Origin: Nemertoderma westbladi
Taxonomy: Eukaryota > Animalia > Xenacoelomorpha
Direction of reading: 5' to 3'
Assembly: GCA_032718475.1 (NCBI GenBank)
Contig: JAUCBJ010007849.1
Location: forward strand, 9,724-73,723
DNA: 64,000 bases
In this document: one piece after another, positions 9,569 through 57,182 of the stretch
How the letters are laid out: the number at the start of each line of letters is the position of its first letter
Numbering within the stretch: position 1 is the stretch's first letter
The notes under the pieces: generated by a model
What the model was told of the DNA's origin: nothing
The model's database searches: none
What the model saw: only the letters and a program-made list of their open reading frames with translations
Position numbers and translations under genes: made by a program

Positions 9569-9644
9569 GTTTAGCTATTCGGTTGAATGCCTGCTGCTAT
9601 AGTTACAGTTAAAGCAAGTCTAGTACTGCAGTATGACCGTTGGC

Positions 9645-17969: not shown

Positions 17970-18178
17970 ATCATATAGTTAGAATTATGTGTATTATTTA
18001 AATTTCCCGCCGCTTTTTTCCGATGAACATCACAAACATAACGATGATACTGTAGTCTTTTATCTTACTAATTATAACTATTACAGCTTCATACGATATT
18101 CTGGAATTACCGTCCCAAATCTACTGAAGAGTAATTATTACGATCACTAGGCCCAGGTTTGTCATCCTTTATTTCCAG

Positions 18179-19359: not shown

Positions 19360-19670
19360 TGGCTACCGCGCTACCTTTATTACATTACCTCATACAGCTC
19401 TTTACTGATGATCATTGTAATGATGTCTGCCAATCTGTAATTGTGTAATAATAACGGTCCCCCCAGAACTTTACTCCCCAAAGGAAACTGCAGTACTCAT
19501 TTAGCTACCACTTACGGATGCATTGTAGAAAAGCGCCCTGGATAGCTCCTTTAGATAAAGCTCATGCCGAAACGAAAACTACCCTGTCCCAATGCGGGGA
19601 TGGAACCTACAACGGATAGATGTGCATTCAAGATTTAACGGTTTAAACCACTAAATCCAAGTTGAGACCG
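19360..19670 (-). mobile_element. Possible decayed tRNA-derived SINE
   Basis: Minus strand has A-box-like TGGATTTAGTGG and B-box-like GGTTCCATCCC about 30 nt apart; boundaries uncertain. Confidence 0.35.
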
Positions 19671-19813
19671 TATATATAATGTCAGAGTCTCAGAAGTATT
19701 CATCTGTTCTCTTGATCATGTTATCATTTTGTAAAGTAATTAATTCATTCCTAATTTATTAATTGAACAAAAACGAATTAACCCTTTAATTATTATATTA
19801 AACACAAACAGTA

Positions 19814-31800: not shown

Positions 31801-34800
31801 TTGCTCCTATAACCTCAATATTATCTATACAATTACTTTCACTTTCCACAGGTTGCTCCTATAGACTCAATATTCTCTATACAATTACTTTCACTTTCCA
31901 CAGGTTGCTCCTATAGTCTCAATATTCTCTATACAATTACTTTCACTTTCCACAGGTTGCTCCTATAGTCTCAATATTCTCTATACAATTACTTTCACTT
32001 TCCACAGGTTGCTCCTATAGTCTCAATATTCTCTATACAATTACTTTCACTTTCCACAGGTTGCTCCTATAGTCTCAATATTCTCTATACAATTACTTTC
32101 ACTTTCCACAGGTTGCTCCTATAACCTCAATATTATCTATACAATTACTTTCACTTTCCACAGGTTGCTCCTATAACCTCAATATTATCTATACAATTAC
32201 TTTCACTTTCCACGAATTGCTCCTATAGACTCAATATTCTCTATACAATTACTTTCAATTTCCACAGGTTGCTCCTATAGTCTCAATATTCTCTATACAA
32301 TTACTTTCACTTTCCACAGGTTGCTCTTATAGTCTCAATATTCTCTATACAATTACTTTCACTTTCCACAGGTTGCTCCTATAGTCTCAATATTCTCTAT
32401 ACAATTACTTTCACTTTCCACAGGTTGCTCCTATAACCTCAATATTATCTATACAATTACTTTCACTTTCCACAGGTTGCTCCTATAACCTCAATATTAT
32501 CTATACAATTACTTTCACTTTCCACGAATTGCTCCTATAGACTCAATATTCTCTATACAATTACTTTCAATTTCCACAGGTTGCTCCTATAGTCTCAATA
32601 TTATCTATACAATTACTTTCACTTTCCACAGGTTGCTCTTATAGTCTCAATATTCTCTATACAATTACTTTCACTTTCCACAGGTTGCTCCTATAGTCTC
32701 AATATTCTCTATACAATTACTTTCACTTTCCACAGGTTGCTCCTATAGTCTCAATATTCTCTATACAATTACTTTCACTTTCCACAGGTTGCTCCTATAA
32801 CCTCAATATTATCTATACAATTACTTTCACTTTCCACAGGTTGCTCCTATAACCTCAATATTATCTATACAATTACTTTCACTTTCCACGAATTGCTCCT
32901 ATAGACTCAATATTCTCTATACAATTACTTTCAATTTCCACAGGTTGCTCCTATAGTCTCAATATTCTCTATACAATTACTTTCACTTTCCACAGGTTGC
33001 TCTTATAGTCTCAATATTCTCTATACAATTACTTTCACTTTCCACAGGTTGCTCCTATAGTCTCAATATTCTCTATACAATTACTTTCACTTTCCACAGG
33101 TTGCTCCTATAACCTCAATATTATCTATACAATTACTTTCACTTTCCACAGGTTGCTCCTATAACCTCAATATTATCTATACAATTACTTTCACTTTCCA
33201 CGAATTGCTCCTATAGACTCAATATTCTCTATACAATTACTTTCAATTTCCACAGGTTGCTCCTATAGTCTCAATATTATCTATACAATTACTTTCACTT
33301 TCCACAGGTTGCTCTTATAGTCTCAATATTCTCTATACAATTACTTTCACTTTCCACAGGTTGCTCCTATAGTCTCAATATTCTCTATACAATTACTTTC
33401 ACTTTCCACAGGTTGCTCCTATAGTCTCAATATTCTCTATACAATTACTTTCACTTTCCACAGGTTGCTTCTATAGTCTCAATATTCTCTATACAATTAC
33501 TTTCACTTTCCACAGGTTGCTCCTATAGACTCAATATTCTCTATACAATTACTTTCACTTTCCACGAATTGCTCCTATAGTCTCAATATTCTCTAAACAA
33601 TTACTTTCAATTTCCACAGGTTGCTCCTATAGTCTCAATATTCTCTATACAATTACTTTCACTTTCCACAGGTTGCTCCTATAGGCTCAATATTCTCTAA
33701 TACAATTACTTTCAATTTCCACAGGTTGCTCTTATAGTCTCAATATTCTCTATACAATTACTTTCACTTTCCACAGGTTGCTCCTATAGTCTCAATATTC
33801 TCTATACAATTACTTTCACTTTCCACAGGTTGCTCCTATAGGCTCAATATTCTCTAATACAATTACTTTCAATTTCCACAGGTTGCTCTTATAGTCTCAA
33901 TATTCTCTATACAATTACTTTCACTTTCCAAAGGTTGCTCTTATAGTCTCAATATTCTCTATACAATTACTTTCACTTTCCACAGGTTGCTTCTATAGTC
34001 TCAATATTCTCTATACAATTACTTTCACTTTCCACAGGTTGCTCCTATAGACTCAATATTCTCTATACAATTACTTTCACTTTCCACAGGTTGCTCCTAT
34101 AGGCTCAATATTCTCTAATACAATTACTTTCAATTTCCACAGGTTGCTCTTATAGTCTCAATATTCTCTATACAATTACTTTCACTTTCCAAAGGTTGCT
34201 CTTATAGTCTCAATATTCTCTATACAATTACTTTCACTTTCCACAGGTTGCTTCTATAGTCTCAATATTCTCTATACAATTACTTTCACTTTCCACAGGT
34301 TGCTCCTATAGGCTCAATATTCTCTAATACAATTACTTTCAATTTCCACAGGTTGCTCTTATAGTCTCAATATTCTCTATACAATTACTTTCACTTTCCA
34401 AAGGTTGCTCTTATAGTCTCAATATTCTCTATACAATTACTTTCACTTTCCACAAGTTGCTCCTATAGTCTCAATATTCTCTATACAATTACTTTCACTT
34501 TCCACAGGTTGCTCCTATAGTCTCAATATTCTCTATACAATTACTTTCACTTTCCACAGGTTGCTCCTATAGTCTCAATATTCTCTATACAATTACTTTC
34601 ACTTTCCACAGGTTGCTTCTATAGTCTCAATATTCTCTATACAATTACTTTCACTTTCCACAGGTTGCTCCTATAGACTCAATATTCTCTATACAATTAC
34701 TTTCACTTTCCACGAATTGCTCTTATAGTCTCAATATTCTCTATACAATTACTTTCACTTTCCACAGGTTGCTCCTATAGTCTCAATATTCTCTATACAA

Positions 34801-37800
34801 TTACTTTCACTTTCCACAGGTTGCTCCTATAGACTCAATATTCTCTAAACAATTACTTTCAATTTCCACAGGTTGCTCTTATAGTCTCAATATTCTCTAT
34901 ACAATTACTTTCACTTTCCACAGGTTGCTCCTATAGTCTCAATATTATCTATACAATTACTTTCACTTTCCACAGGTTGCTCCTATAGACTCAATATTCT
35001 CTAAACAATTACTTTCAATTTCCACAGGTTGCTCTTATAGTCTCAATATTCTCTATACAATTACTTTCACTTTCCACAGGTTGCTCCTATAGTCTCAATA
35101 TTCTCTATACAATTACTTTCACTTTCCACAGGTTGCTCCTATAGTCTCAATATTCTCTATACAATTACTTTCACTTTCCACAGGTTGCTCCTATAACCTC
35201 AATATTATCTATACAATTACTTTCACTTTCCACAGGTTGCTCCTATAGACTCAATATTCTCTATACAATTACTTTCACTTTCCACAGGTTGCTCCTATAG
35301 TCTCAATATTCTCTATACAATTACTTTCACTTTCCACAGGTTGCTCCTATAGTCTCAATATTCTCTATACAATTACTTTCACTTTCCACAGGTTGCTCCT
35401 ATAGTCTCAATATTCTCTATACAATTACTTTCACTTTCCACAGGTTGCTCCTATAGTCTCAATATTCTCTATACAATTACTTTCACTTTCCACAGGTTGC
35501 TCCTATAACCTCAATATTATCTATACAATTACTTTCACTTTCCACAGGTTGCTCCTATAACCTCAATATTATCTATACAATTACTTTCACTTTCCACGAA
35601 TTGCTCCTATAGACTCAATATTCTCTATACAATTACTTTCAATTTCCACAGGTTGCTCTTATAGTCTCAATATTCTCTATACAATTACTTTCACTTTCCA
35701 CAGGTTGCTCCTATAGTCTCAATATTCTCTATACAATTACTTTCACTTTCCACAGGTTGCTCCTATAGTCTCAATATTCTCTATACAATTACTTTCACTT
35801 TCCACAGGTTGCTTCTATAGTCTCAATATTCTCTATACAATTACTTTCACTTTCCACAGGTTGCTCCTATAGACTCAATATTCTCTATACAATTACTTTC
35901 ACTTTCCACGAATTGCTCCTATAGTCTCAATATTCTCTAAACAATTACTTTCAATTTCCACAGGTTGCTCCTATAGTCTCAATATTCTCTATACAATTAC
36001 TTTCACTTTCCACAGGTTGCTCCTATAGGCTCAATATTCTCTAATACAATTACTTTCAATTTCCACAGGTTGCTCTTATAGTCTCAATATTCTCTATACA
36101 ATTACTTTCAATTTCCACAGGTTGCTCCTATAGTCTCAATATTCTCTATACAATTACTTTCACTTTCCACAGGTTGCTTCTATAGTCTCAATATTCTCTA
36201 AACAATTACTTTCACTTTCCACAGGTTGCTCCTATAGGCTCAATATTCTCTAATACAATTACTTTCAATTTCCACAGGTTGCTCTTATAGTCTCAATATT
36301 CTCTATACAATTACTTTCAATTTCCACAGGTTGCTCCTATAGTCTCAATATTCTCTATACAATTACTTTCACTTTCCACAGGTTGCTCCTATAGGCTCAA
36401 TATTCTCTAATACAATTACTTTCAATTTCCACAGGTTGCTCTTATAGTCTCAATATTCTCTATACAATTACTTTCAATTTCCACAGGTTGCTCCTATAGT
36501 CTCAATATTCTCTATACAATTACTTTCACTTTCCACAGGTTGCTCCTATAGTCTCAATATTCTCTATACAATTACTTTCACTTTCCACAGGTTGCTCCTA
36601 TAGGCTCAATATTCTCTAATACAATTACTTTGACTTTCCACGAGTTGCTCCTATAGTCTCAATATTCTCTATACAATTACTTTCACTTTCCACAGGTTGC
36701 TCCTATAGTCTCAATATTCTCTATACAATTACTTTCACTTTCCACAGGTTGCTACTATAGTCTCAATATTCTCTAAACAATTACTTTCAATTTCCACAGG
36801 TTGCTCCTATAGTCTCAATATTCTCTATACAATTACTTTCACTTTCCACAGGTTGCTCCTATAGTCTCAATATTCTCTATACAATTACTTTCACTTTCCA
36901 CAGGTTGCTCCTATAGGCTCAATATTCTCTAATACAATTACTTTGACTTTCCACGAGTTGCTCCTATAGTCTCAATATTCTCTATACAATTACTTTCACT
37001 TTCCACAGGTTGCTTCTATAGACTCAATATTCTCTAAACAATTACTTTCACTTTCCACAGGTTGCTCCTATAGTCTCAATATTCTCTATACAATTACTTT
37101 CACTTTCCACAAGTTGCTTCTATAGTCTCAATATTCTCTATACAATTACTTTCACTTTCCACAGGTTGCTTCTATAGTCTCAATATTCTCTATACAATTA
37201 CTTTCACTTTCCACAGGTTGCTCCTATAGACTCAATATTCTCTATACAATTACTTTCACTTTCCACGAATTGCTCCTATAGTCTCAATATTCTCTAAACA
37301 ATTACTTTCAATTTCCACAGGTTGCTCCTATAGTCTCAATATTCTCTATACAATTACTTTCACTTTCCACAGGTTGCTCCTATAGGCTCAATATTCTCTA
37401 ATACAATTACTTTCAATTTCCACAGGTTGCTCTTATAGTCTCAATATTCTCTATACAATTACTTTCAATTTCCACAGGTTGCTCCTATAGTCTCAATATT
37501 CTCTATACAATTACTTTCACTTTCCACAGGTTGCTTCTATAGTCTCAATATTCTCTAAACAATTACTTTCACTTTCCACAGGTTGCTCCTATAGGCTCAA
37601 TATTCTCTAATACAATTACTTTCAATTTCCACAGGTTGCTCTTATAGTCTCAATATTCTCTATACAATTACTTTCAATTTCCACAGGTTGCTCCTATAGT
37701 CTCAATATTCTCTATACAATTACTTTCACTTTCCACAGGTTGCTCCTATAGGCTCAATATTCTCTAATACAATTACTTTCAATTTCCACAGGTTGCTCTT

Positions 37801-40800
37801 ATAGTCTCAATATTCTCTATACAATTACTTTCAATTTCCACAGGTTGCTCCTATAGTCTCAATATTCTCTATACAATTACTTTCACTTTCCACAGGTTGC
37901 TCCTATAGTCTCAATATTCTCTATACAATTACTTTCACTTTCCACAGGTTGCTCCTATAGGCTCAATATTCTCTAATACAATTACTTTGACTTTCCACGA
38001 GTTGCTCCTATAGTCTCAATATTCTCTATACAATTACTTTCACTTTCCACAGGTTGCTCCTATAGTCTCAATATTCTCTATACAATTACTTTCACTTTCC
38101 ACAGGTTGCTCCTATAGTCTCAATATTCTCTATACAATTACTTTCACTTTCCACAGGTTGCTCCTATAGTCTCAATATTCTCTATACAATTACTTTCACT
38201 TTCCACAAGTGGCTTCTATAGTCTCAATATTCTCTATACAATTACTTTCACTTTCCACAGGTTGCTCCTATAGTCTCAATATTCTCTAAACAATTACTTT
38301 CAATTTCCACAGGTTGCTCCTATAGTCTCAATATTCTCTATACAATTACTTTCACTTTCCACAGGTTGCTCCTATAGTCTCAATATTCTCTATACAATTA
38401 CTTTCACTTTCCACAGGTTGCTCCTATAGTCTCAATATTCTCTATACAATTACTTTCACTTTCCACAGGTTGCTCCTATAGTCTCAATATTCTCTAAACA
38501 ATTACTTTCAATTTCCACAGGTTGCTCCTATAGTCTCAATATTCTCTATACAATTACTTTCACTTTCCACAGGTTGCTCCTATAGTCTCAATATTCTCTA
38601 TACAATTACTTTCACTTTCCACAAGTGGCTCCTATAGTCTCAATATTCTCTATACAATTACTTTCACTTTCCACAGGTTGCTCCTATAGTCTCAATATTC
38701 TCTATACAATTACTTTCAATTTCCACAGGTTGCTCCTATAGTCTCAATATTCTCTATACAATTACTTTCACTTTCCACGAATTGCTCCTATAGACTCAAT
38801 ATTCTCTATACAATTACTTTCACTTTCCACAGGTTGCTCCTATAGTCTCAATATTCTCTATACAATTACTTTCACTTTCCACAGGTTGCTCCTATAGGCT
38901 CAATATTCTCTAATACAATTACTTTGACTTTCCACGAGTTGCTCCTATAGTCTCAATATTCTCTATACAATTACTTTCACTTTCCACAGGTTGCTTCTAT
39001 AGTCTCAATATTCTCTATACAATTACTTTCACTTTCCACAGGTTGCTCCTATAGTCTCAATATTCTCCATACAATTATTTTCACTTTCCACAGGTTGCTT
39101 CTATAGTCTCAATATTCTCTATACAATTACTTTCACTTTCCACAGGTTGCTCCTATAGTCTCAATATTCTCTATACAATTACTTTCACTTTCCACAGGTT
39201 GCTTCTATAGTCTCAATATTCTCTATACAATTACTTTCACTTTCCACAGGTTGCTCCTATAGTCTCAATATTCTCTAAACAATTACTTTCAATTTCCACA
39301 GGTTGCTCCTATAGTCTCAATATTCTCTATACAATTACTTTCACTTTCCACAGGTTGCTCCTATAGTCTCAATATTCTCTATACAATTACTTTCACTTTC
39401 CACAGGTTGCTCCTATAGTCTCAATATTCTCTAAACAATTACTTTCAATTTCCACAGGTTGCTCCTATAGTCTCAATATTCTCTATACAATTACTTTCAC
39501 TTTCCACGAATTGCTCCTATAGACTCAATATTCTCTATACAATTACTTTCACTTTCCACAGGTTGCTCCTATAGTCTCAATATTCTCTATACAATTACTT
39601 TCACTTTCCACAGGTTGCTTCTATAGTCTCAATATTCTCTATACAATTACTTTGACTTTCCACGAGTTGCTCCTATAGTCTCAATATTCTCTATACAATT
39701 ACTTTCACTTTCCACAGGTTGCTCCTATAGTCTCAATATTCTCTATACAATTACTTTCACTTTCCACAGGTTGCTTCTATAGTCTCAATATTCTCTATAC
39801 AATTACTTTCACTTTCCACGAGTTGCTCCTATAGTCTCAATATTCTCTATACAATTACTTTCACTTTCCACAGGTTGCTCCTATAGTCTCAATATTCTCT
39901 ATACAATTACTTTCACTTTCCACAGGTTGCTCCTATAGTCTCAATATTCTCTATACAATTACTTTCACTTTCCACAGGTTGCTTCTATAGTCTCAATATT
40001 CTCTATACAATTACTTTCACTTTCCACAGGTTGCTCCTATATACTCAATATTCTCTATACAATTACTTTCACTTTCCACAGGTTGCTCTTATAGTCTCAA
40101 TATTCTCTATACAATTACTTTCACTTTCCACAGGTTGCTCCTATAGTCTCAATATTCTCTATACAATTACTTTCACTTTCCACAGGTTGCTCCTATAGAC
40201 TCAATATTCTCTAAACAATTACTTTCAATTTCCACAGGTTGCTCTTATAGTCTCAATATTCTCTATACAATTACTTTCACTTTCCACAGGTTGCTCCTAT
40301 AGTCTCAATATTATCTATACAATTACTTTCACTTTCCACAGGTTGCTCCTATAGACTCAATATTCTCTAAACAATTACTTTCAATTTCCACAGGTTGCTC
40401 TTATAGTCTCAATATTCTCTATACAATTACTTTCACTTTCCACAGGTTGCTCCTATAGTCTCAATATTCTCTATACAATTACTTTCACTTTCCACAGGTT
40501 GCTCCTATAGTCTCAATATTCTCTATACAATTACTTTCACTTTCCACAGGTTGCTCCTATAACCTCAATATTATCTATACAATTACTTTCACTTTCCACA
40601 GGTTGCTCCTATAGACTCAATATTCTCTATACAATTACTTTCACTTTCCACAGGTTGCTCCTATAGTCTCAATATTCTCTATACAATTACTTTCACTTTC
40701 CACAGGTTGCTCCTATAGTCTCAATATTCTCTATACAATTACTTTCACTTTCCACAGGTTGCTCCTATAGTCTCAATATTCTCTATACAATTACTTTCAC

Positions 40801-43800
40801 TTTCCACAGGTTGCTCCTATAGTCTCAATATTCTCTATACAATTACTTTCACTTTCCACAGGTTGCTCCTATAACCTCAATATTATCTATACAATTACTT
40901 TCACTTTCCACAGGTTGCTCCTATAACCTCAATATTATCTATACAATTACTTTCACTTTCCACGAATTGCTCCTATAGACTCAATATTCTCTATACAATT
41001 ACTTTCAATTTCCACAGGTTGCTCTTATAGTCTCAATATTCTCTATACAATTACTTTCACTTTCCACAGGTTGCTCCTATAGTCTCAATATTCTCTATAC
41101 AATTACTTTAACTTTCCACAGGTTGCTCCTATAGTCTCAATATTCTCTATACAATTACTTTCACTTTCCACAGGTTGCTTCTATAGTCTCAATATTCTCT
41201 ATACAATTACTTTCACTTTCCACGAGTTGCTCCTATAGTCTCAATATTCTCTATACAATTACTTTCACTTTCCACAGGTTGCTCCTATAGTCTCAATATT
41301 CTCTATACAATTACTTTCACTTTCCACAGGTTGCTCCTATAGTCTCAATATTCTCTATACAATTACTTTCACTTTCCACAGGTTGCTTCTATAGTCTCAA
41401 TATTCTCTATACAATTACTTTCACTTTCCACAGGTTGCTCCTATATACTCAATATTCTCTATACAATTACTTTCACTTTCCACAGGTTGCTCTTATAGTC
41501 TCAATATTCTCTATACAATTACTTTCACTTTCCACAGGTTGCTCCTATAGTCTCAATATTCTCTATACAATTACTTTCACTTTCCACAGGTTGCTCCTAT
41601 AGACTCAATATTCTCTAAACAATTACTTTCAATTTCCACAGGTTGCTCTTATAGTCTCAATATTCTCTATACAATTACTTTCACTTTCCACAGGTTGCTC
41701 CTATAGTCTCAATATTCTCTATACAATTACTTTCACTTTCCACAGGTTGCTCCTATAACCTCAATATTATCTATACAATTACTTTCACTTTCCACAGGTT
41801 GCTCCTATAGACTCAATATTCTCTATACAATTACTTTCACTTTCCACAGGTTGCTCCTATAGTCTCAATATTCTCTATACAATTACTTTCACTTTTCACA
41901 GGTTGCTCCTATAGTCTCAATATTCTCTATACAATTACTTTCACTTTCCACAGGTTGCTCCTATAGTCTCAATATTCTCTATACAATTACTTTCACTTTC
42001 CACAGGTTGCTCCTATAACCTCAATATTATCTATACAATTACTTTCACTTTCCACAGGTTGCTCCTATAACCTCAATATTATCTATACAATTACTTTCAC
42101 TTTCCACGAATTGCTCCTATAGACTCAATATTCTCTATACAATTACTTTCAATTTCCACAGGTTGCTCTTATAGTCTCAATATTCTCTATACAATTACTT
42201 TCACTTTCCACAGGTTGCTCCTATAGTCTCAATATTCTCTATACAATTACTTTCACTTTCCACAGGTTGCTTCTATAGTCTCAATATTCTCTATACAATT
42301 ACTTTCACTTTCCACAGGTTGCTCCTATATACTCAATATTATCTAAACAATTACTTTCAATTTCCACAGGTTGCTCTTATAGTCTCAATATTCTCTATAC
42401 AATTACTTTCACTTTCCACAGGTTGCTCCTATAGTCTCAATATTCTCTATACAATTACTTTCACTTTCCACAGGTTGCTCCTATAGTCTCAATATTCTCT
42501 ATACAATTACTTTCACTTTCCACAGGTTGCTCCTATAACCTCAATATTATCTATACAATTACTTTCACTTTCCACAGGTTGCTCCTATAGACTCAATATT
42601 CTCTATACAATTACTTTCACTTTCCACAGGTTGCTCCTATAGTCTCAATATTCTCTATACAATTACTTTCACTTTCCACAGGTTGCTCCTATAGTCTCAA
42701 TATTCTCTATACAATTGCTTTCACTTTCCACAGGTTGCTCCTATAGTCTCAATATTCTCTATACAATTACTTTCACTTTCCACAGGTTGCTCCTATAGTC
42801 TCAATATTCTCTATACAATTACTTTCACTTTCCACAGGTTGCTCCTATAACCTCAATATTATCTATACAATTACTTTCACTTTCCACAGGTTGCTCCTAT
42901 AACCTCAATATTATCTATACAATTACTTTCACTTTCCACGAATTGCTCCTATAGACTCAATATTCTCTATACAATTACTTTCACTTTCCACAGGTTGCTC
43001 TTATAGTCTCAATATTCTCTAAACAATTACTTTCACTTTCCACAGGTTGCTCTTATAGTCTCAATATTCTCTATACAATTACTTTCACTTTCCACAGGTT
43101 GCTCCTATAGACTAAATATTCTCTAAACAATTACTTTCACTTTCCACAGGTTGCTCCTATAGTCTTAATATTCTCTAATACAATTACTTTGACTTTCCAC
43201 GAGTTGCTCCTATAGACTCAATATTCTCTATACAATTACTTTCACTTTCCACGAATTGCTCCTATAGACTCAATATTCTCTATACAATTACTTTCACTTT
43301 CCACAAGTGGCTCCTATAGTCTCAATATTCTCTATTCAATTACTTTCACTTTCCACAGGTTGCTCCTATAGACTCAATATTCTCTAAACAATTACTTTCA
43401 CTTTCCACAGGTTGCTCCTATAGTCTTAATATTCTCTAATACAATTACTTTCACTTTCCACGAATTGCTCCTATAGACTCAATATTCTCTATACAATTAC
43501 TTTCACTTTCCACAAGTGGCTCCTATAGTCTCAATATTCTCTATACAATTACTTTCACTTTCCACAGGTTGCTCCTATAGTCTCAATATTCTCTATACAA
43601 TTACTTTCACTTTCCACAGGTTGCTCTTATAGTCTCAATATTCTCTATACAATTACTTTCACTTTCCACAGGTTGCTCCTATAGACTCAATATTCTCTAA
43701 ACAATTACTTTCAATTTCCACAGGTTGCTCCTATAGTCTTAATATTCTCTAATACAATTACTTTCACTTTCCACGAATTGCTCCTATAGACTCAATATTA

Positions 43801-46800
43801 TCTATACAATTACTTTCACTTTCCACAGGTTGCTCCTATAACCTCAATATTATCTATACAATTACTTTCACTTTCCACGAATTGCTCCTATAGACTCAAT
43901 ATTCTCTATACAATTACTTTCACTTTCCACGAATTGCTCCAATAGACTCAATATTCTCTATACAATTACTTTCACTTTCCACAGGTTGCTCCTATAGACT
44001 CAATATTCTCTAAACAATTACTTTCAATTTCCACAGGTTGCTCCTATAGACTCAATATTCTCTATACAATTACTTTCACTTTCCACGAATTGCTCCTATA
44101 GACTCAATATTCTCTATACAATTACTTTCACTTTCCACAGGTTGCTCCTATAGACTCAATATTCTCTAAACAATTACTTTCAATTTCCACAGGTTGCTCC
44201 TATAGACTCAATATTCTCTATACAATTACTTTCACTTTCCACGAATTGCTCCTATAGACTCAATATTCTCTATACAATTACTTTCACTTTCCACAGGTTG
44301 CTCCTATAGACTCAATATTCTCTAAACAATTACTTTCAATTTCCACAGGTTGCTCCTATAGACTCAATATTCTCTATACAATTACTTTCACTTTCCACGA
44401 ATTGCTCCTATAGACTCAATATTCTCTATACAATTACTTTCACTTTCCACAGGTTGCTCCTATAGTCTCAATATTCTCTATACAATTACTTTCACTTTCC
44501 ACAGGTTGCTCCTATAACCTCAATATTATCTATACAATTACTTTCACTTTCCACAGGTTGCTCCTATAACCTCAATATTATCTATACAATTACTTTCACT
44601 TTCCACGAATTGCTCCTATAGACTCAATATTCTCTATACAATTACTTTCACTTTCCACAGGTTGCTCCTATAGTCTCAATATTCTCTATAAAATTACTTT
44701 CACTTTCCACAGGTTGCTTTTATAGTCTCAATATTCTCTATACAATTACTTTCACTTTCCACAAGTGGCTCCTATAGTCTCAATATTCTCTATACAATTA
44801 CTTTCACTTTCCACAGGTTGCTCCTATAACCTCAATATTATCTATACAATTACTTTCACTTTCCACGAATTGCTCCTATAGACTCAATATTCTCTATACA
44901 ATTACTTTCACTTTCCACAGGTTGCTCCTATAGTCTCAATATTCTCTATAAAATTACTTTCACTTTCCACAGGTTGCTCCTATAGTCTCAATATTCTCTA
45001 TAAAATTACTTTCACTTTTCACAGGTTGCTTTTATAGTCTCAATATTCTCTATACAATTACTTTCACTTTCCACAGGTTGCTCCTATAACCTCAATATTA
45101 TCTATACAATTACTTTCACTTTCCACAGGTTGCTCCTATAACCTCAATATTATCTATACAATTACTTTCACTTTCCACGAATTGCTCCTATAGACTCAAT
45201 ATTCTCTATACAATTACTTTCACTTTCCACAGGTTGCTCCTATAGTCTCAATATTCTCTATAAAATTACTTTCACTTTCCACAGGTTGCTTTTATAGTCT
45301 CAATATTCTCTATACAATTACTTTCACTTTCCACAAGTGGCTCCTATAGTCTCAATATTCTCTATATAATTACTTTCACTTTCCACAAGTGGCTCCTATA
45401 GTCTCAATATTCTCTATACAATTACTTTCACTTTCCACAAGTGGCTCCTATAGTCTCAATATTCTCTATACAATTACTTTCACTTTCCACAAGTGGCTCC
45501 TATAGTCTCAATATTCTCTATACAATTACTTTCACTTTCCACAAGTGGCTCCTATAGTCTCAATATTCTCTATACAATTACTTTCACTTTCCACAAGTGG
45601 CTCCTATAGACTCAATATTCTCTAAACAATTACTTTCACTTTCCACAGGTTGCTCTTATAGTCTCAATATTCTCTATACAATTACTTTCACTTTCCACAA
45701 GTGGCTCCTATAGTCTCAATATTATCTATACAATTACTTTCACTTTCCACAAGTGGCTCCTATAGTCTCAATATTCTCTATACAATTACTTTCACTTTCC
45801 ACAAGTGGCTCCTATAGTCTCAATATTCTCTATACAATTACTTTCACTTTCCACAGGTTGCTCCTATAGTCTCAATATTCTCTATACAATTACTTTCACT
45901 TTCCACAGGTTGCTCCTATAACCTCAATATTATCTATACAATTACTTTCACTTTCCACAGGTTGCTCCTATAACCTCAATATTATCTATACAATTACTTT
46001 CACTTTCCACGAATTGCTCCTATAGACTCAATATTCTCTATACAATTACTTTCACTTTCCACAGGTTGCTCTTATAGTCTCAATATTCTCTAAACAATTA
46101 CTTTCACTTTCCACAGGTTGCTCTTATAGTCTCAATATTCTCTATACAATTACTTTCACTTTCCACAGGTTGCTCCTATAGACTCAATATTCTCTAAACA
46201 ATTACTTTCACTTTCCACAGGTTGCTCCTATAGTCTTAATATTCTCTAATACAATTACTTTGACTTTCCACGAGTTGCTCCTATAGACTCAATATTCTCT
46301 ATACAATTACTTTCACTTTCCACGAATTGCTCCTATAGACTCAATATTCTCTATACAATTACTTTCACTTTCCACAAGTGGCTCCTATAGTCTCAATATT
46401 CTCTATACAATTACTTTCACTTTCCACAGGTTGCTCCTATAGACTCAATATTCTCTAAACAATTACTTTCACTTTCCACAGGTTGCTCCTATAGTCTTAA
46501 TATTCTCTAATACAATTACTTTCACTTTCCACGAATTGCTCCTATAGACTCAATATTCTCTATACAATTACTTTCACTTTCCACAAGTGGCTCCTATAGT
46601 CTCAATATTCTCTATACAATTACTTTCACTTTCCACAGGTTGCTCCTATAGTCTCAATATTCTCTATACAATTACTTTCACTTTCCACAGGTTGCTCTTA
46701 TAGTCTCAATATTCTCTATACAATTACTTTCACTTTCCACAGGTTGCTCCTATAGACTCAATATTCTCTAAACAATTACTTTCAATTTCCACAGGTTGCT

Positions 46801-46870
46801 CCTATAGTCTTAATATTCTCTAATACAATTACTTTCACTTTCCACGAATTGCTCCTATAGACTCAATATT
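19814..46870 (+). repeat. 52-bp splice-junction satellite, left block (about 520 units)
   Basis: Consensus tctatacaattactttcactttccacag|gttgctcctatagtctcaatattc, period 52, near-identical copies with recurrent variants. Confidence 0.98.
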
Positions 46871-47353
46871 TTCGCAGTCCTCTGTGATACTGCCGAGGAA
46901 CCAACAGTTGGTGGTAAAGTACCTCCAAGTGGGACGGTAGATCTTGTAGCACCCATCAAAGGGATCTCACCTGCACCCGTTGTACTCAAACCGAAAAAAC
47001 ATAAGAAATCTATAAACGAAATATCGGATGAGTTATCCTTAACTCAACACACAATAAAAGAAAACGCTAATGGGGCGGCTAAGCGACGAGGCCGTAGTGC
47101 AACTAGAGGTAGTCGATCTGGTAGTGTGGGTGACATTGGCAAACAACGGGCCAACTCCCGCAGTATGATAAGTCGCTCAGCTCGGAGCAAGGAGGCTACC
47201 CAGCAGGGACCCAGTCAGGGCGAGAAACAGGATCCGAACCCAACGTGTCCTAACCAAGACATGGTTGGTACCAGTCGTGGTGACCTTGCGGGTGGCGTTA
47301 GCGAGGGTCAATCTGCAAACCCTACGAGCTCCGACACCTTCGAAATAGGGTGA
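46871..47353 (+). pseudogene. Truncated LINE ORF1 C-terminus
   Basis: Frame is open from the insertion junction (FAVLCDTAEEP...KPKKHKK...KRRGRS) to TGA at 47351-47353, with no initiator at the junction. Confidence 0.7.
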
Positions 47354-47400
47354 CCAGTACGACCAGTGGCGGTAACCTGAACTCGAGACCAATTAATTAT

Positions 47401-50400
47401 ATGCCTATAAGTTCACTAAAAGTTGGGTCTTTGAATGTTGAAGGTATAGTTAACAAATTACCAGACTTGGAGTTCCAGGAAGTATTAAATAATTATGATA
47501 TTTTTGTATGTACAGAAACCTGGCTGAGCCCTGAAAATTCACTCATTGCGGATATTGCAGGTTTTAATTATTTTGCCGTAACAAGGTTGAATAAAAATCC
47601 CAAAGCTAGACGTTTTAGTGGAGGGATAAACGTGTATTACAAAAAACAGCTTGAAGGACATATAACTGTTCTAGAACGTAATGAGGATATAATTTTTCTA
47701 AATATCTGTGGAACTATTGTAAATTCACCGATTGATATATTATTTTGTGCAATTTATATACCCCCAGAAGGATCAACTTCCCATTGTGGTGACCCTGCAT
47801 CTTTATATGACTTACTTGAAAATGGAATTGCTAAATTTGGTTCGAGCAGGGAAACTATTATAGCAGGCGATTTCAATGCCAGAACTGCAGAACTGAATGA
47901 TTTCATTTGTGATGAATATTCTGACAGGCCCAATGACTTAAATGAGTTATTGCCCCCAGATTATGTTTTCGATGATGACAATGGTGACTGGGAAGGTTCT
48001 GTAAATAAAATTAGGAGAAATCAGGATGAAGTAAAAAATAACCATGGTAAACTACTTCTAAATTTGTGTAAAAATGCCAGGGTCAGAATATTGAATGGAA
48101 GGGCTGGGCGCGATGATGGCGTAGGAAAGTTTACATTTTTTGCACCTGGTGAAAGGAGAACTAGGGCTTCGACCATAGACTATATCCTAGCTGGATGCGG
48201 TCTATTATCTCACTGCTCAAATTTTTATGTTGGGGACCCAAATTTGTTTAGTCCTCACGTTATTGTCACTGCCGAATTTTATTGGCCAGTAGAAATTGAA
48301 ACGCAAGTGGATACTAATATCGATAAAACAACGAAATGCGGGGAACAAAATAGTAGGTTTAAATGGAAGGAAAAATTCAGTGATAAGTTTAAAAAAGAGC
48401 TATCTTCAGAAGTGGTACAAACTAAATTAGACAATATCGCCGACAAACTATGCACAGGACTTAACACTCCGGCGGATATTGATAATGCAACAGAGGAGAT
48501 AGTTGACTGCATTAGACAAGTGGCAGGACGATACTTCAAAGTAAGGGAAGGCGGATCACCGGGTGATAAATGTAATGTTTCTTACCCGTGGTACAATGAT
48601 GAGTGTGCGGATAAGCGTTTTATTTTTCGTAGAGAATTTAATGCATGGAAAAATAGTCCCACTCACAGTACCTTCAACAGACTAGCTACATCTCGTTCAC
48701 AGTACTGTAAGTGCATTCGTCAAGCAAAGGCAAGATATGATCGAGAACAGTCACAAACATTAGAACGCACTAGGGTGGTGAATAGCCAACAGTTTTGGGC
48801 AATGTTAAAAAACTCAACAGGAACAGGTTCTAGAACTCGCGAGGGGGGGCCTACATTAGACTCATTCTCAAAGTATTACGAGACCCTACTGTCAAATAAT
48901 AACAATTTTGTAGATGTAGGCATCTCACCACCAGAAACGGTTAACGTAGATGAGTGCCAAGGCATGTTCGAAAACGATATTTCGGTTGCTTTAACTGAAT
49001 GTGAGTTGGAAAATGCTATTGATAGATTGAAGAAACGTAAATCCCCTGGAATAGATAACATTTTGAACGAGTTCCTGATTGAAGGTAAAGATTTCCTCAT
49101 TCCAATTTTAACAGTACTTTTCAATGCCATTTTGGCATCTGGCAAATTCCCCACAGAATGGGCGATTGCGATAATTTCTCCTATATATAAGAAGAAAGGT
49201 ACATTTTCTGACCCAGATAACTATAGGGGTATATCTCTTATTAGTTGCATAGCCAAACTATTCACCAGCATAGTAAATTCAAGATTGTCATTTTGGGCAG
49301 ACTGTATGGAAGTTCTATCGGAAGCACAGGCGGGTTTCAGATATGGATACAGTACGATCGATCATATCTTCTTGTTAAATGGACTAGTTGAACATTTCAC
49401 TCGTAATCAAGTTGGTAAGCTATACGCGGCCTTTATTGACTTCTCAAAGGCGTTTGATAGCGTTAACAGGGACGCACTGTGGATAAAACTAGCTAGTATT
49501 GGGTTCAGTGGTAAGCTGTTTGATGTGATCAAGAGCATGTATAGTTGCGTCAAATCGTGTGTGCGCTCTAATGGAGAAGTCTCTGATTGTTTTCCGTGTT
49601 TGTCAGGTGTGAGACAGGGTGATTGTTTGTCTCCCTTTTTATTTGCGATGTTCATGAACGATCTGGAGGCAGAGCTTGCGAAGGATGGTTTTGAAGGGAT
49701 TACTATAGGATATTTACATTTATTTCTCATCCTTTATGCCGACGATATTGTATTACTTGCAAGCAGTCCATCAGACTTACAACATTGTCTCGACACGTTA
49801 GGTGACTATTGCGACTACTGGGGTTTAAGGGTTAATCTCGCCAAATCAAATGTTATGGTGTTTCGCAAAGGTGGGCAACTTGCAAGATTAGAAAGGTGGT
49901 CATACAAGGGTGTTGCTATGGAAACGGTTTCACATTATTTGTATCTGGGAGTTACCTTTTCTTGTATGGGGTCCTTCACCGAGGCTCAACGTGTACTTGC
50001 AGAGAAGGCGAATAAGGCATTGTTTTCGTTGAACAAATATCTATTCACATTCCCATGTATCACATTTGATCTTCGCTACAAACTATTTAACTCTCTAATA
50101 CTTCCGATCCTGCACTACGGGTGCCCAGTATGGGGGGACATCGCAGGTCCAGACGTGGAAAAGGTACATCTAAAATTTCTCAAGAGAGGTCTGGGCGTGA
50201 AAACGACAACCCCAAACTTTATGGTGTATGGAGAGACAGGGACGGTACCGCTACGTCTCCATCGACAATTTGCTATGTTAAAATTTTGGGTGAGGATTCT
50301 GAAGCTCCCTGAGAAACGCCTGACAAAACAGATATATTACACACTGCTTAAGGACATGCATACGCAAACATCGAGTAAAAGGGGTGCGACAAACTGGGTA

Positions 50401-50943
50401 GTACAAATACGTAACTTAATCAACAATATTGGATTGAGCTCTTTTTGGACGGAACAAAATGTACACAATGAAAAAACCTTCCTTGCCAGCGCCAAGAGGA
50501 GGCTTCATGATCAGTTCATCCAGGGATGGTGGGCTGATTGCGAAGCGTCTTCTAAGGGAGCCCTATATATAAAATATAACTTTCGAGTTGAGGGTTACTT
50601 AAACATTTTGACTGACCACCCCAAACTGAAAGTAGCCTTGGCACGCCTACGTTGTTCTTCACATAATTTACGTGTGGAAGAAGGCAGATGGCGGAAAGAA
50701 AACCCATTGGAAAGATTATGTGTTTTTTGCACACTAAATGCAATAGAGGACGAAATGCATTTCATCCTGATCTGCCCAGCTTATGCGGAACTACGATTGC
50801 AATTAATACCCGAAACTTTTTGGCGAGACCCAACGAAACAAAATTACCGCCAATTGTTGTCAACGAACTCCAAATCAGCCCTTGTAAATCTGAGCCTGTT
50901 CATTTATAAGGCGATGAAAATCAGAAATGAAACTAACAAATAA
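47401..50943 (+). CDS. LINE ORF2: AP endonuclease, reverse transcriptase and C-terminal Cys/His motif
   Basis: SLNVEG, TETW, AGDFNAR, IDYI; KSPGID, NYRGISL, QAGFR, FIDFSKAFDSV, GVRQGDCLSP, LYADD, YLGV; CVFC...EDEMHFILIC. First ATG is at 47401. Confidence 0.95.
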   Translation: MPISSLKVGSLNVEGIVNKLPDLEFQEVLNNYDIFVCTETWLSPENSLIADIAGFNYFAVTRLNKNPKARRFSGGINVYYKKQLEGHITVLERNEDIIFLNICGTIVNSPIDILFCAIYIPPEGSTSHCGDPASLYDLLENGIAKFGSSRETIIAGDFNARTAELNDFICDEYSDRPNDLNELLPPDYVFDDDNGDWEGSVNKIRRNQDEVKNNHGKLLLNLCKNARVRILNGRAGRDDGVGKFTFFAPGERRTRASTIDYILAGCGLLSHCSNFYVGDPNLFSPHVIVTAEFYWPVEIETQVDTNIDKTTKCGEQNSRFKWKEKFSDKFKKELSSEVVQTKLDNIADKLCTGLNTPADIDNATEEIVDCIRQVAGRYFKVREGGSPGDKCNVSYPWYNDECADKRFIFRREFNAWKNSPTHSTFNRLATSRSQYCKCIRQAKARYDREQSQTLERTRVVNSQQFWAMLKNSTGTGSRTREGGPTLDSFSKYYETLLSNNNNFVDVGISPPETVNVDECQGMFENDISVALTECELENAIDRLKKRKSPGIDNILNEFLIEGKDFLIPILTVLFNAILASGKFPTEWAIAIISPIYKKKGTFSDPDNYRGISLISCIAKLFTSIVNSRLSFWADCMEVLSEAQAGFRYGYSTIDHIFLLNGLVEHFTRNQVGKLYAAFIDFSKAFDSVNRDALWIKLASIGFSGKLFDVIKSMYSCVKSCVRSNGEVSDCFPCLSGVRQGDCLSPFLFAMFMNDLEAELAKDGFEGITIGYLHLFLILYADDIVLLASSPSDLQHCLDTLGDYCDYWGLRVNLAKSNVMVFRKGGQLARLERWSYKGVAMETVSHYLYLGVTFSCMGSFTEAQRVLAEKANKALFSLNKYLFTFPCITFDLRYKLFNSLILPILHYGCPVWGDIAGPDVEKVHLKFLKRGLGVKTTTPNFMVYGETGTVPLRLHRQFAMLKFWVRILKLPEKRLTKQIYYTLLKDMHTQTSSKRGATNWVVQIRNLINNIGLSSFWTEQNVHNEKTFLASAKRRLHDQFIQGWWADCEASSKGALYIKYNFRVEGYLNILTDHPKLKVALARLRCSSHNLRVEEGRWRKENPLERLCVFCTLNAIEDEMHFILICPAYAELRLQLIPETFWRDPTKQNYRQLLSTNSKSALVNLSLFIYKAMKIRNETNK

Positions 50944-51311
50944 TTATTTATATTTTCTAACAATATTAATATTTCATCTATTAACTTAAATTGTTGTGTG
51001 TTTCATTTTCATTGTTGATTTATGCATTGGGGTCACGGCGCTAAGTAGAAATATAATATATCTATTATACTTTGAAGTATACGAACACGACTATTAATGA
51101 TAAAATAGAATATTGTTTCCTTATACGGTGTAACTCAGATTATAGATAGGATAATTTCGCTATTCTGTCCTACCTTCTAAGAAATTGTTATTTATAATAG
51201 TTCAGCTGGTGTACTGATTGATCAATTTATATTACATGGTGTCTACCGGTAAAGTGCAACAATTACATTAATTTGTATGTTGAAATAATAAATAAATAAT
51301 AAAAAAAAAAA

Positions 51312-54300
51312 AATATTATCTATACAATTACTTTCACTTTCCACAGGTTGCTCCTATAACCTCAATATTATCTATACAATTACTTTCACTTTCCACGAAT
51401 TGCTCCTATAGACTCAATATTCTCTATACAATTACTTTCACTTTCCACGAATTGCTCCTATAGACTCAATATTCTCTATACAATTACTTTCACTTTCCAC
51501 AGGTTGCTCCTATAGACTCAATATTCTCTAAACAATTACTTTCAATTTCCACAGGTTGCTCCTATAGACTCAATATTCTCTATACAATTACTTTCACTTT
51601 CCACGAATTGCTCCTATAGACTCAATATTCTCTATACAATTACTTTCACTTTCCACAGGTTGCTCCTATAGACTCAATATTCTCTAAACAATTACTTTCA
51701 ATTTCCACAGGTTGCTCCTATAGACTCAATATTCTCTATACAATTACTTTCACTTTCCACGAATTGCTCCTATAGACTCAATATTCTCTATACAATTACT
51801 TTCACTTTCCACAGGTTGCTCCTATAGACTCAATATTCTCTAAACAATTACTTTCAATTTCCACAGGTTGCTCCTATAGACTCAATATTCTCTATACAAT
51901 TACTTTCACTTTCCACGAATTGCTCCTATAGACTCAATATTCTCTATACAATTACTTTCACTTTCCACAGGTTGCTCCTATAGTCTCAATATTCTCTATA
52001 CAATTACTTTCACTTTCCACAGGTTGCTTTTATAGTCTCAATATTCTCTATACAATTACTTTCACTTTCCACAGGTTGCTCCTATAACCTCAATATTATC
52101 TATACAATTACTTTCACTTTCCACGAATTGCTCCTATAGACTCAATATTATCTATACAATTACTTTCACTTTCCACGAATTGCTCCTATAGACTCAATAT
52201 TCTCTATACAATTACTTTCACTTTCCACAGGTTGCTCCTATAGTCTCAATATTCTCTATAAAATTACTTTCACTTTCCACAGGTTGCTCCTATAGTCTCA
52301 ATATTCTCTATAAAATTACTTTCACTTTTCACAGGTTGCTTTTATAGTCTCAATATTCTCTATACAATTACTTTCACTTTCCACAGGTTGCTCCTATAAC
52401 CTCAATATTATCTATACAATTACTTTCACTTTCCACAGGTTGCTCCTATAACCTCAATATTATCTATACAATTACTTTCACTTTCCACGAATTGCTCCTA
52501 TAGACTCAATATTCTCTATACAATTACTTTCACTTTCCACAGGTTGCTCCTATAGACTCAATATTCTCTAAACAATTACTTTCAATTTCCACAGGTTGCT
52601 CCTATAGACTCAATATTCTCTATACAATTACTTTCACTTTCCACGAATTGCTCCTATAGACTCAATATTCTCTATACAATTACTTTCACTTTCCACAGGT
52701 TGCTCCTATAGACTCAATATTCTCTAAACAGTTACTTTCAATTTCCACAGGTTGCTCCTATAGACTCAATATTCTCTATACAATTACTTTCACTTTCCAC
52801 GAATTGCTCCTATAGACTCAATATTCTCTATACAATTACTTTCACTTTCCACGAATTGCTCCTATAGACTCAATATTCTCTATACAATTACTTTCACTTT
52901 CCACAGGTTGCTCCTATAGACTCAATATTCTCTAAACAATTACTTTCAATTTCCACAGGTTGCTCCTATAGACTCAATATTCTCTATACAATTACTTTCA
53001 CTTTCCACGAATTGCTCCTATAGACTCAATATTCTCTATACAATTACTTTCACTTTCCACAGGTTGCTCCTATAGTCTCAATATTCTCTATAAAATTACT
53101 TTCACTTTCCACAGGTTGCTTTTATAGTCTCAATATTCTCTATACAATTACTTTCACTTTCCACAAGTGGCTCCTATAGTCTCAATATTCTCTATACAAT
53201 TACTTTCACTTTCCACAGGTTGCTCCTATAACCTCAATATTATCTATACAATTACTTTCACTTTCCACGAATTGCTCCTATAGACTCAATATTCTCTATA
53301 CAATTACTTTCACTTTCCACAGGTTGCTCCTATAGTCTCAATATTCTCTATAAAATTACTTTCACTTTCCACAGGTTGCTCCTATAGTCTCAATATTCTC
53401 TATAAAATTACTTTCACTTTTCACAGGTTGCTTTTATAGTCTCAATATTCTCTATACAATTACTTTCACTTTCCACAGGTTGCTCCTATAACCTCAATAT
53501 TATCTATACAATTACTTTCACTTTCCACAGGTTGCTCCTATAACCTCAATATTATCTATACAATTACTTTCACTTTCCACGAATTGCTCCTATAGACTCA
53601 ATATTCTCTATACAATTACTTTCACTTTCCACAGGTTGCTCCTATAGTCTCAATATTCTCTATAAAATTACTTTCACTTTTCACAGGTTGCTTTTATAGT
53701 CTCAATATTCTCTATACAATTACTTTCACTTTCCACAGGTTGCTCCTATAGTCTCAATATTATCTATACAATTACTGGTACTTTCACTTTCCACAGGTTG
53801 CTCCTATAACCTCAATATTATCTATACAATTACTTTCACTTTCCACAGGTTGCTCCTATAACCTCAATATTATCTATACAATTACTTTCACTTTCCACGA
53901 ATTGCTCCTATAGACTCAATATTCTCTATACAATTACTTTCACTTTCCACAGGTTGCTCCTATAGTCTCAATATTCTCTATAAAATTACTTTCACTTTCC
54001 ACAGGTTGCTTTTATAGTCTCAATATTCTCTATACAATTACTTTCACTTTCCACAAGTGGCTCCTATAGTCTCAATATTCTCTATACAATTACTTTCACT
54101 TTCCACAAGTGGCTCCTATAGTCTCAATATTCTCTATACAATTACTCTCACTTTCCACAAGTGGCTCCTATAGTCTCAATATTCTCTATACAATTACTTT
54201 CACTTTCCACAAGTGGCTCCTATAGTCTCAATATTCTCTATACAATTACTTTCACTTTCCACAAGTGGCTCCTATAGTCTCAATATTCTCTATACAATTA

Positions 54301-55797
54301 CTTTCACTTTCCACAAGTGGCTCCTATAGACTCAATATTCTCTAAACAATTACTTTCACTTTCCACAGGTTGCTCTTATAGTCTCAATATTCTCTATACA
54401 ATTACTTTCACTTTCCACAAGTGGCTCCTATAGTCTCAATATTATCTATACAATTACTTTCACTTTCCACAAGTGGCTCCTATAGTCTCAATATTCTCTA
54501 TACAATTACTTTCACTTTCCACAAGTGGCTCCTATAGTCTCAATATTCTCTATACAATTACTTTCACTTTCCACAAGTGGCTCCTATAGTCTCAATATTC
54601 TCTATACAATTACTTTCACTTTCCACAAGTGGCTCCTATAGTCTCAATATTCTCTATACAATTACTTTCACTTTCCACAAGTGGCTCCTATAGACTCAAT
54701 ATTATCTAAACAATTACTTTCACTTTCCACAGGTTGCTCTTATAGTCTCAATATTCTCTATACAATTACTTTCACTTTCCACAGGTTGCTCTTATAGTCT
54801 CAATATTCTCTATACAATTACTTTCACTTTCCACAGGTTGCTCCTATAGTCTCAATATTATCTATACAATTACTTTCACTTTCCACAAGTGGCTCCTATA
54901 GTCTCAATATTCTCTATACAATTACTTTCACTTTCCACAAGTGGCTCCTATAGTCTCAATATTCTCTATACAATTACTTTCACTTTCCACAAGTGGCTCC
55001 TATAGTCTCAATATTCTCTATACAATTACTTTCACTTTCCACAGGTTGCTCCTATAGTCTCAATATTATCTATACAATTACTTTCACTTTCCACAAGTGG
55101 CTCCTATAGTCTCAATATTCTCTATACAATTACTTTCACTTTCCACAAGTGGCTCCTATAGTCTCAATATTCGCTATACAATTACTTTAACTTTCCACAA
55201 GTGGCTCCTATAGTCTCAATATTCTCTATACAATTACTTTCACTTTCCACAAGTGGCTCCTATAGTCTCAATATTCTCTATACAATTACTTTCACTTTCC
55301 ACAGGTTGCTCCTATAGTCTCAATATTATCTATACAATTACTTTCACTTTCCACAAGTGGCTCCTATAGTCTCAATATTCTCTATACAATTACTTTCACT
55401 TTCCACAAGTGGCTCCTATAGTCTCAATATTCTCTATACAATTACTTTCACTTTCCACAAGTGGCTCCTATAGTCTCAATATTCTCTATACAATTACTTT
55501 CACTTTCCACAAGTGGCTCCTATAGTCTCAATATTATCTATACAATTACTTTCACTTTCCACGAATTGCTCCTATAGACTCAATATTCTCTATACAATTA
55601 CTTTCACTTTCCACAGGTTGCTCTTATAGTCTCAATATTCTCTATACAATTACTTTCACTTTCCACAAGTGGCTCCTATAGTCTCAATATTCTCTATACA
55701 ATTACTTTCACTTTCCACAAGTGGCTCCTATAGACTCAATATTCTCTATACAATTACTTTCACTTTCCACAGGTTGCTCCTATAGTCTCAATATTCT
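51312..55797 (+). repeat. 52-bp splice-junction satellite, right block (about 86 units), overlapping the first 8 codons of exon 3
   Basis: Same unit; the last copy supplies the functional acceptor AG at 55771-55772. Confidence 0.98.
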
Positions 55798-57182
55798 TCC
55801 TGCTCAGCTATTGCGCTACCAATCTCGCTTGCATGGCGTTGGATGTGGCCTCCGCTCCGAACTTCCGCCCAACTTTCCGCTATTTCAGCTGGTACACCTC
55901 GTTACTCGGTGTCCTCTCCACGCTCGTTATGATGTTCCTTATCTCCCCGGCCTACGCTGCCGTCAGCATCGTCGTCTGTCTCCTCATGATCATCGCTATC
56001 CACTACCGGGAACCTCCTATCAGCTGGGGTTCCATCAGCCAGGCTCTAATCTTCCACCAAGTTAGAAAATACCTCCTTCTTCTCGACACAAGGAAAGACC
56101 ACATTAAATTCTGGCGTCCGCAGATTTTACTACTCGTAGCTAACGCTCGCAGTGCCTGTCATTTAATAAGTTTTGCTAATGATATCAAAAAAAGTGGGTT
56201 GTTAGTCATTGGCAATGTTGTTGTTGGAGATTTGGATGACTTTGTAATTGATCCAGTTCATAAACTCTGTAACACTTGGTTGTCGCTTGTGGATATCCTT
56301 AAAGTAAAAGCCTTTGTGGAAGTTACTTTATCGAAGTCGATTAGACACGGGGCCCATCAGTTAATGCGACTATCTGGCATCGGGGGAATGAAACCGAACA
56401 CCGTGGTCTTGGGTTTCCACGACGACTGTCTACCGACAGACACTTTGTCCGGGACACTGGACAGCAATCGGACGCGGTCAAGCAACTGGTTCCACACCGC
56501 CCCGGACAACTCGAACAAAGACACCGAGATGTCCGGCTTTCCGAACCTCCGGACCGAGTTTTCTGACCCGGAACACCGAATCCGACTTCCGGATTACGTT
56601 CTAATCGTCCGAGACGCGATCAAAATGAACAAGAACGTCATATTAGCGAGAGGTTTCCAGCAATCTAGACCGCTACATCGCTTCAACCACAGTTACATTG
56701 ATGTCTGGCTTGTTAACTTCTTTATCTCGATGTCGGAAGTTATTCTCGATACAACCAGTTTACTTAGTCTACAATTGGCTTGCATCTTAAAAATGACTCC
56801 GAAATGGAAGAAGCGATCTAGCCTCCGGGTATATTTCGCGGCGCATTCTTCCAACTACGCCTCCTTGGAGGCGAACCTTCGGGAACTCCTCATCCAACTC
56901 CGTATCCCCGGCGCCATTATCCGCGTCGACATCGACGAACTCCAGGCGTCCTACGATCAGGACTCACTCCTATTCAACGCGGATTACGCTAGACGCGCGA
57001 ACCAAGTGATCCGACAACATTCCGTGAACACTGAGGTTTCTGTTGTTTATCTTCCGCGGCCTCCCGACGACCCCATTAATGACGAGCCCTACATCAATCA
57101 ACTCGATTTATTGACTCGCAATCTCCATGTCTCTACTATCCTAGTCCATGGAGTCAGCGCTGTAACCTCAATACACTTGTAA
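55773..57182 (+). CDS. SLC12A9: SLC12A9 terminal coding exon 3
   Basis: Begins in the last satellite unit: ttccacag|GTT GCT CCT = VAPIVSIFFLLSYCATNLACMALDVASAPNFRPTF, then WGSISQALIFHQVRKYLLLLD, KFWRPQILLLV, GGMKPNT. Spliced CDS 1063+239+1410 = 2712 nt (903 aa). Confidence 0.92.
   Translation, partial: VAPIVSIFFLLSYCATNLACMALDVASAPNFRPTFRYFSWYTSLLGVLSTLVMMFLISPAYAAVSIVVCLLMIIAIHYREPPISWGSISQALIFHQVRKYLLLLDTRKDHIKFWRPQILLLVANARSACHLISFANDIKKSGLLVIGNVVVGDLDDFVIDPVHKLCNTWLSLVDILKVKAFVEVTLSKSIRHGAHQLMRLSGIGGMKPNTVVLGFHDDCLPTDTLSGTLDSNRTRSSNWFHTAPDNSNKDTEMSGFPNLRTEFSDPEHRIRLPDYVLIVRDAIKMNKNVILARGFQQSRPLHRFNHSYIDVWLVNFFISMSEVILDTTSLLSLQLACILKMTPKWKKRSSLRVYFAAHSSNYASLEANLRELLIQLRIPGAIIRVDIDELQASYDQDSLLFNADYARRANQVIRQHSVNTEVSVVYLPRPPDDPINDEPYINQLDLLTRNLHVSTILVHGVSAVTSIHL

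Follow-up and report, generated by a model that had tools for sequence, protein, structure and literature searches.

A 606-copy repeat of an intron/exon boundary in an SLC12A9-like gene of Nemertoderma westbladi and its terminal patch of altered acceptors

Intron 2 of an SLC12A9-like cation-chloride cotransporter gene was found by monomer decomposition to carry 606 tandem copies of a 52-bp unit, or 31.5 kb, in the window, the whole 64,000-nt stretch of Nemertoderma westbladi DNA analyzed here. The unit joins 27 nt from the end of intron 2 to the 25 nt with which exon 3 begins, and the last unit is the boundary itself. As judged from its sequence, the array is a mirage minisatellite, a head-to-tail repeat across an authentic intron/exon boundary. 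As in other mirages, the splice signal has been retained by many copies and lost by others: 464 of the 605 nonfunctional units read CACAG|GT, and the remaining 141 (23%) are altered. Most of the 33 units directly 5' of the functional one are altered and read AAG in place of CAG. We lean, with reservations, toward a reading in which the array is a tolerated mirage and the AAG-rich patch is one hairpin-forming variant spread by slippage and short duplications, with no selected buffer.

The host gene and the structure of the array

The gene lies on the forward strand and has three coding exons, which together form a 903-aa frame without internal stop. Coding exon 1 extends from the ATG to its donor at 15695..16757 and encodes the Pfam AA_permease domain, while exon 2 (18179..18417) ends in phase 0 with the donor GAG|GTATAA. 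Intron 2 spans 37,355 nt (18418..55772) and is followed by the coding part of exon 3, the last exon (55773..57182), with its stop codon at 57180-57182 and an AATAAA at 57623. The product contains the AA_permease (PF00324) and SLC12 (PF03522) domains. Named matches among the best 120 of 1870 homologues were mostly SLC12A9 or SLC12A9-like, at 44-49% identity, and the exon 2/3 junction aligned without a gap in 119 of these best 120. On the sequence criteria of both domains, a length of about 900 aa and such top named matches, the transporter is a putative SLC12A9 (CIP1) orthologue.

Other repeats and genes were noted around these exons. Introns 1 and 2 hold interspersed repeat insertions at 16965-17984 and 18449-19032, both polymorphic for presence, the first being missing from the contigs of run X1 and the second from those of run X3. 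A 38-bp minisatellite of 6.4 copies (11324-11565) lies 5' of the gene. An LTR retrotransposon occupies the minus strand at 1469-9574 and has two long frames, of 1322 and 1378 aa, with an in-frame stop between them; from its appearance we take it to be of the BEL/Pao type. An intronless cytochrome P450 frame was found at 59600-61123 (Pfam p450, E 5e-96), and a second tandem array, with a 26-bp unit in 59.5 copies at 97% matches, begins at 62452 and continues past the window end at 64000. By-eye inspection of this second array showed no tie to a splice site.

The 52-bp array is in two parts on the forward strand, 520 units at 19814..46870, the first of which is diverged and carries the original intron end, and 86 units at 51312..55797. 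The functional unit occupies 55738..55797, and its acceptor AG at 55771-55772 was identified both from the exon join in run X1 and from the homologue alignment. The unit consensus is identical to this functional copy, and therefore all variants are derived. We counted 82 distinct monomers arranged in coherent higher-order repeats. An 8-nt near-match links the intron just 5' of the first unit (19813-19821) to the exon-side end of the unit and suggests that microhomology-mediated duplication may have created the 52-bp intron/exon unit. A metagenome scan for the unit gave 0 matches.

The two parts are separated by a LINE (46871..51311, + strand) with endonuclease and reverse transcriptase, a poly-A tail, a 1213-aa open frame at 47302-50943 and a short AATATT target duplication. 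It lies in sense orientation relative to the gene. A 33-unit higher-order repeat spans the LINE, which was therefore inserted after that duplication. The element looks full-length and carries three AATAAA at 51287-51298; host transcripts could be polyadenylated too early at these signals, and the array could furnish the acceptors of a spurious terminal exon.

The terminal patch and the origin of its variant

The terminal patch comprises units 573-605 (54022..55737, + strand), of which 25 are AAG, one is GAA and seven are CAG. The count made by hand in the initial annotation, 25 CACAAG-TGG, one CACGAA-TTG and seven CACAG|GTT in the 33 units before the true acceptor, was reproduced exactly, as was the AAG state of the two units directly 5' of the functional one (604 and 605). 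Consensus units form a run at 26050-26450, within the stretch 26050-26850 described there as pure CAG, and the interior AAG clusters it had mentioned are present at 25214-25473, 27914-28173 and 45302-45821. In rotation tests, the enrichment at the 3' end exceeded simple chance, with at least 26 altered units in only 0.3% of circular 33-unit windows (rotation p = 0.003) and a rotation p of 0.008 in a scan over window sizes 5-150. The enrichment persisted after exact de-duplication of the whole array (p 0.01-0.03). A binomial p of 3e-11 was discarded as invalid because the units are non-independent. The gradient that had been proposed was not smooth and took the form of a step, a Spearman test over 19 blocks giving p = 0.08, or 0.21 without the terminal block.

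The initial annotation had read the patch as a buffer of weakened acceptors next to the real one. Haplotypes with disabled last units would then have been favored, as purifying selection weeded out intact decoys close to the last exon. We regard such selection as unlikely. In its favor are the position of the patch at the 3' end, with the rotation p values given above, and the share of altered units, which is 45% in the 3' 165 units versus 15% in the first 440. The 3' domain is, however, also richer in non-acceptor changes (1.80 per unit in units 441-572 versus 0.93), and the 33-unit patch was picked after inspection of the data. Nor are the decoys uniformly disabled. The nearest intact one, unit 603 (55582..55633, + strand), has its AG at 55615-55616, 156 nt 5' of the true acceptor, and intact decoys number 7 within 1.75 kb, 43 within 4.5 kb and 464 in total. 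The TAG behind the pyrimidine stretch is kept in all 33 terminal units.

We compared the patch with neutral arrays simulated by block duplication and deletion with the last unit fixed; the parameter ranges were chosen by us, and the model was run without hairpin-biased slippage. Acceptance was based on the consensus share, the number of monomers and the positions of variants (4219 of 64556, 2314 of 34696 and 2123 of 30910). A terminus with at least 26 of 33 units altered was seen in 11 of the 4219 accepted arrays and, in the second simulation set, in 6 of 2314 under uniform turnover and 14 of 2123 under 3'-polar turnover; its frequency in unconditioned neutral simulations, 0.3-1.5%, counts in favor of a buffer. 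When arrays were conditioned on 12-35% altered units, the corresponding counts were 3/222 (uniform) and 3/184 (3'-polar). The scan statistic gave 8/222 and 11/184 under the same conditioning, and 6/92 and 8/78 when arrays were also matched for patchiness. Plain neutrality makes such a terminal patch uncommon, about 1-10% once conditioned, and it is this rarity that preserves for selection the low probability we assign to it.

The altered units share much of their ancestry. A G>A change at unit position 35 is common to 131 of the 141, and the alleles are nested on this change or its swap: AAG-TGG in 55 units, GAG in 29 (with two sub-variants) and GAA in 45. The several recurrent variants that had been said to strike exactly the acceptor thus reduce to one root, and their independence had been overstated. 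Commonly variant positions fall on 11 of the 18 G/C but 4 of the 34 A/T positions of the unit, and 4 of these 15 lie within positions 34-38 (p = 0.02, post hoc). Through the double change that defines AAG, positions 34-38 become exactly complementary, in reverse, to positions 24-28, and the unit gains a perfect 5-bp inverted repeat, CACTT/AAGTG. Only 29 of 468 comparable double changes (6%) would yield such a repeat, which makes it plausible that the double change arose once, by a single template switch perfecting the hairpin.

The DNA hairpin predicted for AAG was the most stable among six unit types on both strands, with -5.6/-6.2 against -1.8/-2.2 kcal/mol for two units. Within units 1-572, the unit after an AAG unit is itself AAG in 48% of cases versus 5% expected, the highest value among 16 alleles. 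The non-acceptor allele 49T>A, which improves a hairpin on the opposite strand, is carried by 24 of the 33 units 520-552, a patch as dense as the AAG one, and has the longest run of all (11); it rides in part on GAA units. Under the reading we favor, the AAG hairpin would promote one-unit slippage and so give rise to local AAG runs, and slippage together with short duplications would have spread AAG beside exon 3.

Duplication is also evident at a larger scale. The stretch 53814-54541, which includes the first part of the terminal patch, has a higher-order copy at 45094..45821 (+ strand) with nine AAG units and 12 of 14 monomers identical, and the interior cluster at that place is therefore not independent. 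The clusters at 25.2 kb and 27.9 kb form another such pair of copies; the interior AAG runs amount to only about two independent clusters, one being a copy of the terminal patch. Eleven tandem de-duplications reduce the acceptor string of the terminal patch to 6 letters, whereas at the level of exact monomers the 33 units reduce only to 23. Several observations count against spread by local turnover: the patch lies at exactly the end expected under selection, it is rare in the neutral simulations, its enrichment outlasts de-duplication, variant positions are in excess within 34-38, and the series CAG > AAG > GAG > GAA resembles stepwise decay.

Choice of the last acceptor

Run X1 skips intron 1 at GT..AG, and both introns are absent from its spliced contigs; one contig of 1952 nt (depth 239) runs from the 3' end of exon 2 directly into position 55773. 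X1 is recorded as 'DNA?' but was treated as RNA-like because both introns are skipped; with an exon depth of about 240 versus 13 for intron 1, a processed DNA copy is the less likely source. The X1 contigs, which are presence-only data and drop rare forms, contained no exon 2-decoy junction, and no X1 sequence was placed in the two units 5' of the functional one within the exon 2-exon 3 contig. X1 covers neither the array nor the unique parts of intron 2 and is silent on its own array genotype. Since X1 differs from the window haplotype and its contigs drop rare forms, it attests to correct splicing in the species and not to fidelity on this allele.

The likeliest rule for this choice is terminal-exon definition, an established idea, by which the spliceosome would take the last acceptor; the last copy alone precedes a real exon and a poly(A) signal, so decoys would be ignored whether intact or altered. 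If decoys did compete strongly, the gene would still be exposed to the intact ones at -156 nt and beyond. Joining to any CAG, AAG or GAG decoy leads to an early stop, which counts in favor of a buffer. The only frame-keeping decoy AG is that of the TAG in the penultimate unit (55731..55733, + strand), which would add 13 residues (open frame 55734-57182).

A different use of the decoys, on account of which the array would be tolerated, is imaginable in recursive splicing. Joining of exon 2 to a decoy would regenerate GAG|GT, from which the transcript would be spliced onward to the last unit, and AAG would be neutral or slightly harmful. Every intact unit does read AG|GT, and since exon 3 is the last exon such a ladder would end at the true acceptor. 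The regenerated donor, GTTGCT, nevertheless fits the usual donor consensus poorly; the X1 contigs are without the exon 2-decoy junction that would be its intermediate; and the AAG patch would be left unexplained. We consider recursive splicing improbable.

It had been cautioned that AAG units still contain an AG, shifted by 1 nt. This concern is answered by the hairpin, which is predicted to bury both the pyrimidine tract and the AG, the modeled RNA accessibility of the two being 0.57-0.60 in AAG units versus 0.78-0.82. Lower access would probably make AAG units weaker decoys, in keeping with either a by-product of spread or selection. It is conceivable, if doubtful, that a hairpin variant masking tract and AG was favored beside the last exon, the satellite thereby evolving its own splicing shield.

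Other haplotypes and known boundary repeats

Depth-based copy numbers were about 400-880 in run X2, 690-860 in X3 and 16-36 in X4, ratios that are rough, as library types are off record. The array appears to differ in size by about 20- to 50-fold between runs, showing the length instability between haplotypes that belongs to the mirage definition; within a single species, copy number seems to range from tens to hundreds. The Adh3 mirage of amphioxus reportedly shows somatic instability.

The same depths bear on whether the order of the 3' units could be an artefact of collapsed or mis-ordered repeats in the assembly. The read data cannot resolve the order of units lying more than about 30 nt away from the exon, and no AAG-specific contig was identified in X2, a possible source of the window DNA, or in X3. 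Against an artefact, the array size in the window agrees with depth in both runs, and the 82 distinct monomers form coherent higher-order repeats, one of them spanning the LINE; we hold such an artefact to be very improbable. A 75-nt contig of X2 (depth 593) was considered as an AAG path and dropped, since its boundaries misfit an AAG bubble.

The short X4 array was represented by one cyclic contig of 82 nt at depth 394, compared with 11-25 for single-copy sequence, and is a single simple cycle. This contig ends at 55797, and the X4 exon contig starts at 55768. In model graphs a CAG array gives exactly these limits, whereas an AAG array gives 55771 and 55742. Under either a CAG or an AAG cycle the contig shows 3 differences from the window, so the boundaries alone decide. 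Assembly bubble removal may hide minority units, and up to about half of the X4 units could be AAG; the dominant unit of X4 is CAG, while minority AAG units may be hidden. The four listed exon-3 differences of X4 are all synonymous, which together with the contig limits indicates that a short, CAG-dominated array adjoins an apparently constrained exon. X3 and X4 share one sample label yet differ in exon 3 (0 versus 5 other letters in 433). The initial annotation had asked whether its gradient recurs in other haplotypes. X4 offers a short array in which CAG predominates, which weighs against a buffer but falls short of refuting it outright, as minority AAG units may be present and the units are unphased.

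Of the proposed buffer, then, one part stands: the 3' enrichment is real, is rare under position-uniform neutrality and involves an allele with a stable predicted hairpin. Selection as its cause is countered by the derivation of the patch from a single allele in a single haplotype through few duplications, by AAG runs far from the exon, by the intact decoy at -156 nt, by the CAG unit of X4, by the X1 contigs, among which, as presence-only data, no decoy-joined form was seen, and by known mirages, which splice unbuffered.

Those mirages are minisatellites of amphioxus in Adh3, the globin genes BflGb6 and BflGb9, troponin C and PGBD5; as described in the available parts of the reports, regular splicing is preserved, and splice signals persist in many copies though not in every one (PMC3087553, PMC3902484). 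Like the array described here, they repeat the intron 3' end and exon start in tandem, BflGb6 on the acceptor side (PMC3087553), their copy number differs between haplotypes, and their boundary units escape homogenization (PMC3087553, PMC3902484). They are far smaller: BflGb6 has 3 and 6 copies (PMC3087553), whereas the array described here reaches 606 copies and 31.5 kb, contains higher-order repeats and is interrupted by a LINE. Positional bias of altered sites is not described in the available parts of PMC3087553 and PMC3902484. In the literature searched, which was thin on subscription journals, we found no description of positional decay of decoy acceptors in tandem arrays.

Two human loci offer partial parallels, again from the available parts of the reports. 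CBS 844ins68 duplicates an intron/exon junction, giving two identical 3' splice sites of which the downstream one is used; it has only two copies, and G runs between the two sites promote the distal one, whereas the 52-bp unit is without a G run (PMC2630376, PMC1802585). The 37-bp VNTR of F7 intron 7 likewise spans an exon/intron boundary, and its functional pseudo-donors are silent by position and not degraded, but it lies on the donor side and has few copies; the 5'-to-3' scanning model proposed for it is not directly transferable to acceptors, for which the final copy has to be the one chosen (PMC1557585).

The array is an extreme case of a known repeat type, with about 100 times the copy number of the amphioxus globin mirage as given in the available part of PMC3087553. 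It offers a natural test of terminal acceptor choice among hundreds of identical upstream acceptors. Should the buffer prove to be selected, the order of variants within a satellite would be under selection through splicing fidelity, a rare situation.
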